In this document: positions 51,629-53,437 of the stretch, piece after piece | Numbering within the stretch: position 1 is the first letter of the stretch | How the letters are laid out: each line of letters begins with the position of its first letter | DNA from: Chlamydiales bacterium STE3 | GTDB lineage: Bacteria > Chlamydiota > Chlamydiia > Chlamydiales > Parachlamydiaceae | NCBI GenBank assembly: GCA_011125455.1 | Contig: VKHO01000025.1 | Span: 138,724 to 202,723, forward strand | DNA length: 64,000 nucleotides | Direction of reading: 5' to 3' | Notes under the pieces: model-generated | Told to the model about the DNA's origin: nothing | What the model saw: the letters and a program-made list of their open reading frames with translations, nothing else | Databases searched by the model: none | Made by a program: the position numbers and the translations under genes

Positions 51629-51870
51629 ATGCTCGAATGCTTGGATAAAACCCAGCGTTAGGTGGGTTGATAGAAAAGATTGTTGATTGTTTGAAAAGAC
51701 TCTTCGAGGCAGAACAGGAATTTTACAAACAAACTTACGAAAACCCAAAAAAGGAGCTGGTTGGAGTTCAAAACCGAATCTTTCATCTTGTTGATGCTCT
51801 TCTCGATAGCAAGGTAGATGGCGATAACTATGAACAAAAGCTAAACGCGTATAAAAAACGCAAACACTGG
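51629..51870 (+). repeat. Direct repeat copy 1 (about 240 bp) flanking the Fic gene
   Basis: aatgctcgaatgcttggataaaac...gattgtttgaaaagactcttcgaggcagaacaggaattttacaaacaaac...gatggcgataactatgaacaaaagctaaacgcgtataaaaaacgc recurs at 53199..53437 with a diverged centre. Confidence 0.75.
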
Positions 51871-51918
51871 ATCCCTTTACATATGGGTACTCCCAAAGCC
51901 AGCCATATTAACGTCTAA
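51667..51918 (+). CDS. Small repeat-encoded ORF (83 aa)
   Basis: MIEKIVDCLKRLFEAEQEFYKQTYENPKKELVGVQNRIFHLVDALLDSKVDGDNYEQKLNAYKKRKH... A diverged, frameshifted copy is encoded by repeat 2. Confidence 0.35.
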   Translation: MIEKIVDCLKRLFEAEQEFYKQTYENPKKELVGVQNRIFHLVDALLDSKVDGDNYEQKLNAYKKRKHWIPLHMGTPKASHINV

Positions 51919-51997
51919 TTGTGAAAACCATCTTGCTTTTTCTGCATTTTATCTGCATGATACAAGCATCATCTAATGCAGATAAAGAGCCGTTATT

Positions 51998-53098
51998 ATG
52001 CCGATAAAGTTTGAACCAAACTATACCATTTCATCAAGGATCATGAACTGCCTGATTCGCATCGAAGCAGCAAAGCAAAAAATACTACATTTACCTTTAA
52101 CGCCAATAGTTCTTAGTTCTTTAAGAGAAACAGCACGTCTTTATACCACTCACTATTCCACAATGATTGAAGGAAATAGGCTGGATCCAGATCAAGTAGA
52201 GGAAGTTTTAAAGTATCATGGTCATTTTCCTGGGCGTGAACGCGATGAACATGAAGTAAAAGGCTACTATGCTGCATTAGCTCAAGTAGAAAAATGGGCT
52301 GCACAAGGTGTAAGCATTACAGAAAAAATGATCCAGACACTTCATGCACTTGTGATGGCCAATGGCAAAGAAAATGCCAAACCAACCGCATATAGAGATG
52401 GTCAAAATGTTATTCGAGATGGTAGAACAAAAGCAATTGTCTATATGCCTCCCGAGGCTAAAGATGTAAAAAGTTTGATGACAGGTATGGTAGATTGGAT
52501 TAATAAAAATAGGGAGTTACCTTGTCCTATCATTGCAAGCATTACCCACTATCAGTTTGCAACCATACACCCTTATTATGATGGGAACGGTAGAACAGCT
52601 AGGTTACTTACCACCTTAATTCTACATTTGGGAGGATATGATCTAAAAGGTCTTTATTCTTTGGAAGAATACTATGCTCGGAATCTAGGTAATTATTACG
52701 AAGCAATTAGCATTGGAGAATCTCATAATTACTATATGGGACGTGCTGAAGCAGATATTACAAAATGGGTGGAATATTTTATAGAAGGAATGGCTGTTTC
52801 ATGTGAAAATGTTTTAAAACGCATGGATGAAGCCAAGACTCAAGGTTCTCCCGATCAAAGCGCTCTAATTAGGAAACTTGATCCCAAACAACGCAAGGCG
52901 CTGGAGTTGTTCCAAGAATTTGAAACAATTACTAGCCGCCAAATCGGTGAACTATTTGGATTTAAACCACGTACAAGCGCGGCCCTTTGTGCAAGTTGGG
53001 TTGAAAATGGCTTTCTAAATATTGTTGATTCATCAAATAAAGGACGAAAATATAGATTAGGTGCCGAATATCAAAGAATAGTCAATCTGAATAGGTAG
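51998..53098 (+). CDS. Fic-family protein, class II (internal inhibitory motif)
   Basis: Fic motif HPYYDGNGRTARLL (HPFx[DE]GNGRxxR). Upstream inhibitory-helix motif STMIEGN ([ST]xxxE[GN]). C-terminal wHTH-like region. Confidence 0.85.
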   Translation: MPIKFEPNYTISSRIMNCLIRIEAAKQKILHLPLTPIVLSSLRETARLYTTHYSTMIEGNRLDPDQVEEVLKYHGHFPGRERDEHEVKGYYAALAQVEKWAAQGVSITEKMIQTLHALVMANGKENAKPTAYRDGQNVIRDGRTKAIVYMPPEAKDVKSLMTGMVDWINKNRELPCPIIASITHYQFATIHPYYDGNGRTARLLTTLILHLGGYDLKGLYSLEEYYARNLGNYYEAISIGESHNYYMGRAEADITKWVEYFIEGMAVSCENVLKRMDEAKTQGSPDQSALIRKLDPKQRKALELFQEFETITSRQIGELFGFKPRTSAALCASWVENGFLNIVDSSNKGRKYRLGAEYQRIVNLNR

Positions 53099-53198
53099 AT
53101 TTGCCTATTGTCATTAAAAGCAAAAATGCCAAAGTTAGCTCCACTTATAAATAGGTGTGTGTCTAAATTTTAAAATTATTTAAGGATTGCTAAATCTA

Positions 53199-53437
53199 AT
53201 GCTCGAGTGCTTGGATAAAACAAGGTGTTAGATGGATTGATAGAGAAGATTGTTGATTGTTTGAAAAGACTCTTCGAGGCAGAACAGGAATTTTACAAAC
53301 AAACTCACGAAAAGACTAAGAAAAGAGTTGAATCAAGTTCAGCATCAAATTTCTTGGCTTATTGGCTCTCGTTCAGATAGAAAAATTGATGGCGATACCT
53401 ATGAACAGAAGCTAAACGAGTATAAAAAACGCTAATA
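53199..53437 (+). repeat. Direct repeat copy 2 flanking the Fic gene
   Basis: See copy 1. The 5' roughly 110 bp and 3' roughly 45 bp are near-identical, and the middle has diverged. Confidence 0.75.

Follow-up and report, generated by a model that had tools for sequence, protein, structure and literature searches.

How did an intact gene for a Fic protein come to lie between two long direct repeats beside a tRNA gene? The question is raised by a locus of Chlamydiales bacterium STE3, an Acanthamoeba endosymbiont of the Parachlamydiaceae with a draft genome (PMC7225534). The locus occupies positions 50787-53655 of the window, the stretch of 64,000 nucleotides of contig VKHO01000025.1 that was analysed. 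A sequence-only reading had described a Fic cassette that recombined into a repeated small gene, within accessory DNA ending at tRNA-Ser(GGA). The results presented here indicate that the block is probably the decayed remnant of at least one integrative element of the large serine recombinase (LSR) type at the 3' end of tRNA-Ser(GGA), with the repeats being pieces of its integrase and Fic being cargo. This conclusion builds on direct observations, namely the identity of the repeat, the insertion relative to an empty site, the link of the integrase family to tRNA genes, and the association of Fic with tRNA-Ser.

Identity of the repeated sequence

BLASTN comparison of the window with itself recovered a significant direct repeat of 248 nt (51625-51871 versus 53195-53442; 81% identity, E 3e-63), in agreement with the repeats of about 240 bp previously noticed around Fic. 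No third copy was found within the 64-kb window. The distance between the copies is 1570 nt, and a repeat finder paired 51625-51752 with 53195-53322 at 89% identity. The similarity is unevenly distributed. In-register identity is 0.80-1.00 in the left part (51625-51744), only 0.53-0.73 in the core (51746-51820), 0.87-0.93 in the right part (51821-51865) and 0.47-0.67 beyond it, up to 51910. By segment, this corresponds to 97% (left), 60% (core), 93% (right) and 54% (tail), and the earlier description of near-identical ends around a diverged core therefore holds. A block of 60 nt is perfectly conserved (51676-51735 and 53246-53305). The core of copy 2 is nearer to the relic at locus L015 (79%) than to copy 1. 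A 12-nt in-frame deletion and numerous derived substitutions set both copies apart from the related loci L002, L015, L016 and L022; the deletion is absent from all other relics.

Copy 1 contains an open reading frame (ORF) of 83 amino acids (51667-51918, TTG start), annotated as the "hypothetical protein" PHSC3_000919. Copy 2 has the same reading frame, disrupted by a frameshift and stops. Neither the ORF nor frameshift-corrected reconstructions matched Pfam or NCBIfam, and a word-indexed protein search with the ORF returned nothing beyond the ORF itself. An exhaustive HMMER search with the ORF returned 11 proteins: the ORF, nine fragments and a single full-length protein of 507 aa, P0127, which was matched at residues 343-415. 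P0127 is an LSR, since it contains Resolvase, Recombinase and Zn_ribbon_recom domains. As in LSR integrases of the phiC31, Bxb1, TnpX and CcrAB type, these domains and a long coiled coil follow each other in canonical order, and the repeat corresponds to the coiled-coil part. Unlike those integrases, the copies in the window are non-functional fragments only.

The fragments were delimited with a profile hidden Markov model (HMM) built from seven intact relatives and with tblastn using P0127, P0125 and P0126 as queries. On the side of copy 1, the profile matched 51318-51431 (positions 223-260) and 51478-51888 (positions 276-413), with the zinc ribbon remnant starting at 51451/51478. On the side of copy 2, it matched 53187-53567 (positions 323-453). 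The recombinase domain, zinc ribbon and coiled coil have thus left remnants in canonical order, all with stops or frameshifts, and those preceding copy 1 run contiguously into it. LSR homology of copy 1 fades at 51912, and copy 2, with one frameshift and several stops, reads into tRNA-Ser. The catalytic domain with the serine nucleophile (positions 1-222) is present in P0127, but the profile had no match to it in 50600-53700, indicating that the LSR copies of the window are fragments and not functional members of the family.

By homology, the repeated unit is identified as residues ~326-430 of an LSR of ~500 aa, and both copies as pseudogene pieces. The apparent repeat is the stretch in which an LSR copy truncated at its 3' end (residues ~223-428) overlaps one truncated at its 5' end (residues ~326-495). 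The 83-aa ORF follows directly on integrase remnants in other frames, and the supposed small gene is therefore not a gene but a part of an integrase pseudogene that happens to be open. The sequence-only reading was correct in recognizing the ORF and its broken counterpart, but their status as genes did not stand. An annotation trap is thereby corrected, in that a "hypothetical protein" and an apparently gene-flanked cassette are integrase debris. The features of the locus are collected in Table 1. The ~55 nt preceding copy 2 weakly resemble the sequence upstream of the relic in Parachlamydiaceae SSA5 (L002), but the similarity was not significant by BLASTN and was dropped.

Table 1. Features of the STE3 locus, in window coordinates.
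Feature	Position	Strand	Remarks
Left part of STE3-specific insertion	50787..51317	.	Origin unrecognisable; probably spurious 85-aa minus-strand ORF at 51013-51270
Decayed LSR pseudogene, recombinase domain and zinc ribbon remnants (positions ~223-325)	51318..51624	+	tblastn, profile hmmsearch; stops and frameshifts
Repeat copy 1, LSR coiled-coil region (residues ~326-428)	51625..51912	+	DNA repeat proper 51625-51871
Conserved Fic leader	51913..51997	+	Homology to Fic loci of other genomes begins at 51913-51931
Fic gene, class II, SoFic-like, 366 aa, intact	51998..53098	+	Pfam Fic 4e-19
Fic 3' flank	53099..53187	.	~60 nt of no recognised origin after hairpin
Repeat copy 2 and remaining LSR C-terminus (residues ~326-495)	53188..53652	+	DNA repeat proper 53195-53442
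tRNA-Ser(GGA)	53653..53743	-	3' end faces and abuts LSR relic; presumed integration target

The insertion at tRNA-Ser(GGA) and the integrase family

The syntenic locus L025, which comes from the nearest relative available, has the order S20 - PepX - NTP_transf - tRNA-Ser(GGA) - DUF2059 and no trace of LSR or Fic. Nucleotide homology between L025 and STE3 ends at window positions 53656 and 50786, leaving a gap of ~110 bp in L025 versus 2.87 kb in STE3. The LSR relic of STE3 reaches 53652, and the 3' end of tRNA-Ser(GGA) is at 53653. The claim that accessory DNA ends at this tRNA gene is thus upheld, and a site without Fic, for which relatives were to be checked, exists in L025, a distant relative (63-70% aa). 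The left part of the insertion (50787-51317) had no match with the LSR HMM, with BLASTN or TBLASTX against the loci fetched, or with Pfam.

Related LSR genes are closely tied to tRNA genes. The LSR ORF terminates inside a convergent tRNA gene in L007/L008 (tRNA-Gln, 63-nt overlap), L011 and L012 (tRNA-Asn, ~40 nt overlap), L019 (tRNA-Asp) and L023 (tRNA-Pro), and stops 9 nt short of the 3' end of tRNA-Pro in L024. C-terminal LSR relics adjoin or extend into a tRNA gene in L009, L015-L018 and L020; for L015-L017 this is tRNA-Ser. Twelve further loci thus have an LSR-at-tRNA arrangement like that of STE3. Many related loci contain only C-terminal relics, and the relics nearest to those of STE3 (L015, L016, L022 and SSA5) are broken by in-frame stops or frameshifts at different places. 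A scan of genome contigs returned one locus, that of SSA5, and not the STE3 locus itself. The sequence-only reading had named dispersed elements unrelated to Fic as its alternative, and this proved half true: the integrase relic stands at tRNA genes in many chlamydial contigs that lack Fic. Compared to other LSR integrases, members of this family stand out in that the ORF runs into the 3' end of a convergent tRNA gene, or stops next to it, and in that the elements leave tRNA 3' repeats of 44-47 nt. To our knowledge, this is unusual among serine integrases.

Several further observations concern the family. The intact LSR gene of L007 (10001-11535) has a primase-helicase gene (Zn_ribbon_DnaG, AAA_25 and wHTH) directly upstream, as do the intact members of the tRNA-ending clade. 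IMG/VR contained no relatives of the integrase. The ORF in L009 (7117-8328) joins the LSR C-terminus, starting at residue ~321, in frame with an unrelated N-terminal segment of ~230 aa, which may perhaps derive from a transposase. L010 has two partial LSR genes (2645-3308 and 7833-8545) before an intact tRNA-Asn gene (14342-14415), which is also preceded by three copies of the tRNA-Asn 3' end of 44-47 nt, one of them at 10509-10555. In SSA5 (L002:9947-10494 and 10740-14146), an LSR relic is followed by an exact 61-nt copy of the 3' end of tRNA-Ser(CGA), and then by a gene pair named AbiEi/AbiEii-like by resemblance only, by tyrosine-integrase fragments and by the intact tRNA gene. As judged from gene order, the SSA5 locus is a tyrosine-integrase island stacked onto an older serine-integrase relic. 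Together, L010 and SSA5 document tandem accretion, and the array of L010 shows that integration at one site was repeated. An LSR clade whose genes end inside tRNA genes and build tandem arrays may merit a study of its own.

The arrangement resembles the tycheposons of Prochlorococcus, in which islands near tRNA genes grow additively and a minority use LSRs (bioRxiv 10.1101/2020.12.28.424599). In both, the integrase is tRNA-proximal, newer elements displace older ones and leave fragmented integrases and partial tRNAs, and the cargo serves defence or niche functions. The STE3 block differs from tycheposons in that it has no partial tRNA, its cargo lies inside the integrase relic itself, and the hosts are Chlamydiae. 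It is reasonable to regard the block as an ordinary decayed tRNA-linked island, a type of structure that is already known. Its value is as a concrete case, in obligate intracellular amoeba symbionts, of the growth and decay of a tRNA-linked island with toxin or defence cargo.

The Fic gene and its loci in other genomes

The Fic protein contains the catalytic motif HPYYDGNGRTAR at residues 191-202 (H191), with Tyr where the consensus HxFx(D/E)GNGRxxR has Phe, and this motif is conserved in all seven orthologues compared. The inhibitory motif STMIEG is at residues 54-59 (S54, E58), N-terminal to the Fic core. In phmmer alignments, STMIEGN aligns with TVAIEGN of FICD, and the catalytic loops align as well. 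In the scheme reportedly set out by Engel et al. in 2012, class II Fic proteins have the inhibitory (S/T)xxxE(G/N) helix N-terminal to the core. The STE3 protein therefore belongs to class II, and the Pfam match and motif positions confirm that an intact class II gene with both motifs had been recognized correctly. The best solved relative is 4rgl (1.5e-21). The PADLOC model PDLC03963 of the SoFic anti-phage defence family matched residues 42-356 with its positions 52-352 of 361 (4.9e-52). However, the protein scores 62 bits against the NCBIfam SoFic equivalog, whose cut-off is 550, and is therefore not an orthologue of SoFic itself. The C-terminal ~70 residues form a helix-helix-helix-strand-strand unit that is confident in the AlphaFold model (shallow alignment) and that looks like a winged helix.

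Homologues of 76-93% identity are found in Parachlamydiaceae, Rhabdochlamydia, a Rickettsia endosymbiont, and gammaproteobacterial and Verrucomicrobia metagenome-assembled genomes. The core gene next to the block, by comparison, reaches at most 63% identity with any other sequence. Comparison with six orthologues gave dN/dS of 0.06-0.13 and dS of 0.47-0.97. These values and this distribution indicate that the gene is strongly conserved and has spread horizontally. Sofic is reported to be a toxic AMPylase that acts in abortive infection, and in E. coli EcSofic is neutralised by a small neighbouring gene (PMC12249575). Like SoFic of Shewanella oneidensis, human FICD/HYPE and PADLOC SoFic, the STE3 protein has the inhibitory motif and the Fic core on a single chain, and SoFic-type proteins also have a C-terminal helical or winged-helix domain. 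Unlike SoFic systems, Fic genes of the STE3 type have no conserved downstream AS1-like small gene. The host also differs, being an obligate intracellular amoeba symbiont, so that roles in defence, as a toxin or as an effector are all candidates. A small ORF beside Fic is likewise seen in class I FicT/FicA and in Sofic/AS1 pairs. However, in STE3 the small ORF is an integrase fragment, lacks an inhibitory motif and is not conserved with Fic, and the inhibitory helix is built into Fic itself. An antitoxin of the FicA/AS1 type was consequently rejected: the neighbouring ORFs are LSR fragments with no inhibitory motif, and there is no conserved partner gene.

Upstream of Fic, the leader contains an 11-bp perfect inverted repeat, TTTATCTGCAT (51948-51958) and ATGCAGATAAA (51976-51986), with a 17-nt spacer. 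The right arm abuts the ribosome-binding site. Comparison of seven chlamydial loci revealed identical arms around a varying spacer, and part of the inverted repeat is also present in the Rickettsia endosymbiont. The hairpin is modestly stable (z = -2.2). The inverted repeat may be an operator for the predicted winged-helix domain of Fic or a translational hairpin. A weak hairpin also spans the Fic stop codon (AATAGG, 53090-53095; CCTATT, 53104-53109). No match to the other loci fetched was found for 53099-53200, and a scan with promoter and terminator consensus sequences returned nothing useful for Fic.

Nucleotide homology to other Fic loci is confined to 51913/51931-53073/53098, that is, to the gene and a leader of ~70-85 bp. 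The flanks in other genomes are unrelated, with IS66 in L003 and IS4-type elements in L004 and in the Rickettsia locus L031. Four more contigs have the Fic orthologue oriented towards the 3' end of tRNA-Ser, at a distance of 129 bp in L029 (GGA), 281 bp in L030 (GGA), 77 bp in L028 (TGA) and 1.7 kb in L005 (TGA). In L030, an LSR fragment (residues ~405-430, ...HVDADIASLITVKT; 4825-4899) lies just upstream of its Fic leader, and LSR residues ~431-495 (6210-6469) lie between Fic (5001-6098) and tRNA-Ser(GGA). As read from these matches, Fic in L030 is inserted into an LSR relic without duplication. A contig with the same ZnuABC synteny has an uninterrupted relic (P0129) and no Fic. The L030 junction falls after codon 430 and 15 nt of filler. 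The STE3 junction (51912|51913) falls after codon ~428, ~24 nt away, and a 24-nt deletion at GTC microhomology could turn the former into the latter. A possible duplicate of ~12 nt of TVKT-coding bases, with 8/12 matches, flanks the L030 insert. The claim that Fic recombined into a repeated small gene is therefore retained as to its location, since Fic lies inside the repeated sequence in STE3 and inside the same kind of sequence, unduplicated, in L030; it is the small gene that has to be given up.

Other Fic loci are mentioned for completeness. In a Rickettsia endosymbiont of a weevil (L031:5935-7110), Fic and its leader are 79% nucleotide-identical to the STE3 gene and adjoin an IS4-family transposase, whereas neither a tRNA gene nor an LSR is found in the vicinity. 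This similarity is evidence for transfer across phyla. In L004 (10729-11039), a relic of the LSR C-terminus, accompanied by a degenerate remnant of a tRNA, lies ~150 bp upstream of a distant Fic (11183-12235, 28% identity), 5 kb from a close Fic orthologue on the same contig. The STE3 window also contains a second, truncated Fic-domain ORF of 129 aa (47896-48285, plus strand; Pfam Fic 1.8e-10, PADLOC SoFic 1.3e-9) with the degenerate motif HLFIAGNGRMAR, ~5.4 kb further from the tRNA gene. A highly conserved SoFic-like Fic that has moved among Chlamydiae, Rickettsiales and other phyla, repeatedly beside tRNA-Ser, may also merit separate study. Neither this spread nor the LSR clade alters current understanding of Fic proteins and integrases.

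Origin of the duplication

The observations suggest the following history. One or more LSR elements would have integrated at the 3' end of tRNA-Ser(GGA) and then decayed. Fic presumably inserted into the relic near codon 430, so that an L030-like LSR::Fic ancestor preceded the STE3 arrangement. The extra copy 2 may derive from a second related element or from an ectopic copy of a relic, followed by a deletion. Repair templated by another relic, or duplication in place, could have produced it as well, and the data fit these routes equally. Most simply, the two copies would be old, neutrally decaying paralogous pieces of the same element sub-lineage, and the patches of 97% and 93% identity would reflect recent gene conversion between them. 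RecA-dependent recombination at the 60-nt perfect block could now delete Fic. Fic itself is predicted to be an AMPylase that inhibits itself and serves as a toxin or in defence, and it may regulate its own expression by means of its winged-helix domain and the palindrome in the leader.

Among the alternatives, duplication in place is a possibility to be kept in mind, although it is not the expected outcome. A single relic would have received Fic, and a segment of ~290 bp (residues 326-430) would have been copied across Fic by gap repair, template switching or unequal exchange, during or after insertion, with no second element. The deletion and derived substitutions common to both copies fit this explanation, as does the small size of the whole insertion, only 2.87 kb. 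The interrupted relic of L030 has no duplication, which indicates that the duplication is specific to the STE3 lineage. However, duplication in place predicts uniform divergence, whereas identity ranges from 97% to 54% and the core of copy 2 is nearer to L015, so gene conversion would still be needed. In addition, ~60 nt of unrelated sequence separates the Fic terminator region from copy 2. A more general proposal is that the C-terminal LSR relics found beside tRNA-Ser in many amoeba-associated Chlamydiae act, together with the tRNA, as homology "landing pads" through which defence or toxin cargo moves between endosymbionts of one host without a working integrase, or that a Fic cassette targets codon ~430, the STE3 duplication being the footprint; this is unlikely. 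It is still more doubtful that Fic travels on a small cassette, either autonomous or site-specific, with the integrase as its target at codon ~430, with independent insertions in STE3 and L030 and the repeat as a long target duplication. Such a cassette would explain why the STE3 and L030 junctions are non-identical yet lie within ~24 nt, and why the left end (GTCT...CATAAAAA...CTTGC) is common to L004, which has no LSR on that side; the possible TVKT-coding duplicate around the L030 insert would also fit. Against it, 51913-53187 contains no transposase, integrase or terminal inverted repeats, and elsewhere homology ends with the gene and its leader, amid unrelated flanks with IS66 or IS4 nearby. 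Moreover, the microhomology deletion would explain the shift in the junction, and the L030 duplicate is imperfect.

Two remaining explanations have little to recommend them. That the repeat is a genuine small gene, encoding a coiled-coil protein, an antitoxin of the FicA/AS1 type or a recombination-directionality factor, present as two paralogs into which a Fic cassette recombined, is very improbable. Copy 1 is indeed open for 83 codons, the small neighbour of EcSofic in E. coli offers a precedent (PMC12249575), and P0123, P0124 and the truncated relics in L002, L015 and L016 begin near the same residue. However, the ORF is continuous with upstream integrase remnants in other frames, copy 2 is broken, the relics in L015, L016, L022 and L002 are broken at different places, and the ORF has neither a Pfam or NCBIfam match nor an (S/T)xxxE(G/N) motif. 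In L028 and L029, Fic is only 77-129 bp from the tRNA gene and is not preceded by an LSR fragment; a conserved small partner of this Fic therefore does not exist. The idea that the duplicated segment is an assembly artefact can practically be dismissed. The genome is a draft (PMC7225534), and the independent short assembly L001 ends inside both repeat copies. However, L001 is 100% identical over 51856-53275, which covers Fic, its junction with copy 2 and the last ~57 nt of copy 1, so these junctions are not assembly-specific. The copies also differ by 19% and have different flanks, which is not expected from collapsed or duplicated reads. A composite transposon, a cassette bracketed by insertion sequences and an integron cassette were rejected: the ORF list of 50787-53655 contains no transposase, Pfam gave none for the four ORFs scanned, no flanking inverted repeats are present, and the repeats are direct and integrase-derived.

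Several points weigh against the history of LSR integration and decay favoured here. STE3 has no close relative in the collections searched, given that its best core-gene identity is 63%, that of the NTP_transf gene to the right of the tRNA (53874-54578). The displaced tRNA 3' fragment expected at attL is missing, in that 43000-53600 contains no match of at least 12 nt to the tRNA, although tRNA 3' repeats of this kind are present in the relatives L010 and L002. With neither attL nor a catalytic remnant, the left boundary can be placed only tentatively, and so can the number of elements that originally integrated. A single Fic insertion shared by STE3 and L030 is plausible, not proven, because the junctions are ~24 nt apart. 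The shared 12-nt deletion favours a common ancestor of both copies within the STE3 lineage and would fit duplication in place equally well. Gene conversion would be deduced solely from the identity pattern of two sequences. The activity, regulation and defence role of Fic are predictions, and the AlphaFold model of the protein is poor (mean pLDDT 60) and unreliable outside the C-terminal ~70 residues.

Finally, the surroundings of the block are also variable. A region of low GC content (0.32-0.39 compared to ~0.43) at ~43900-50200, between a macB/FtsX-type ABC operon and the DUF2059 gene, encodes an S9 peptidase, a DnaJ-domain protein and a TPR-like protein, and the corresponding interval of L026 contains different genes. 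The window further contains an intact toxin-antitoxin pair of overlapping genes for an MntA-like nucleotidyltransferase and a HepT (HEPN) protein (45072-45362 and 45340-45696, plus strand). In L015, a pair distantly related to this MntA/HepT pair (30-38% aa) precedes the LSR relic at tRNA-Ser(CGA).

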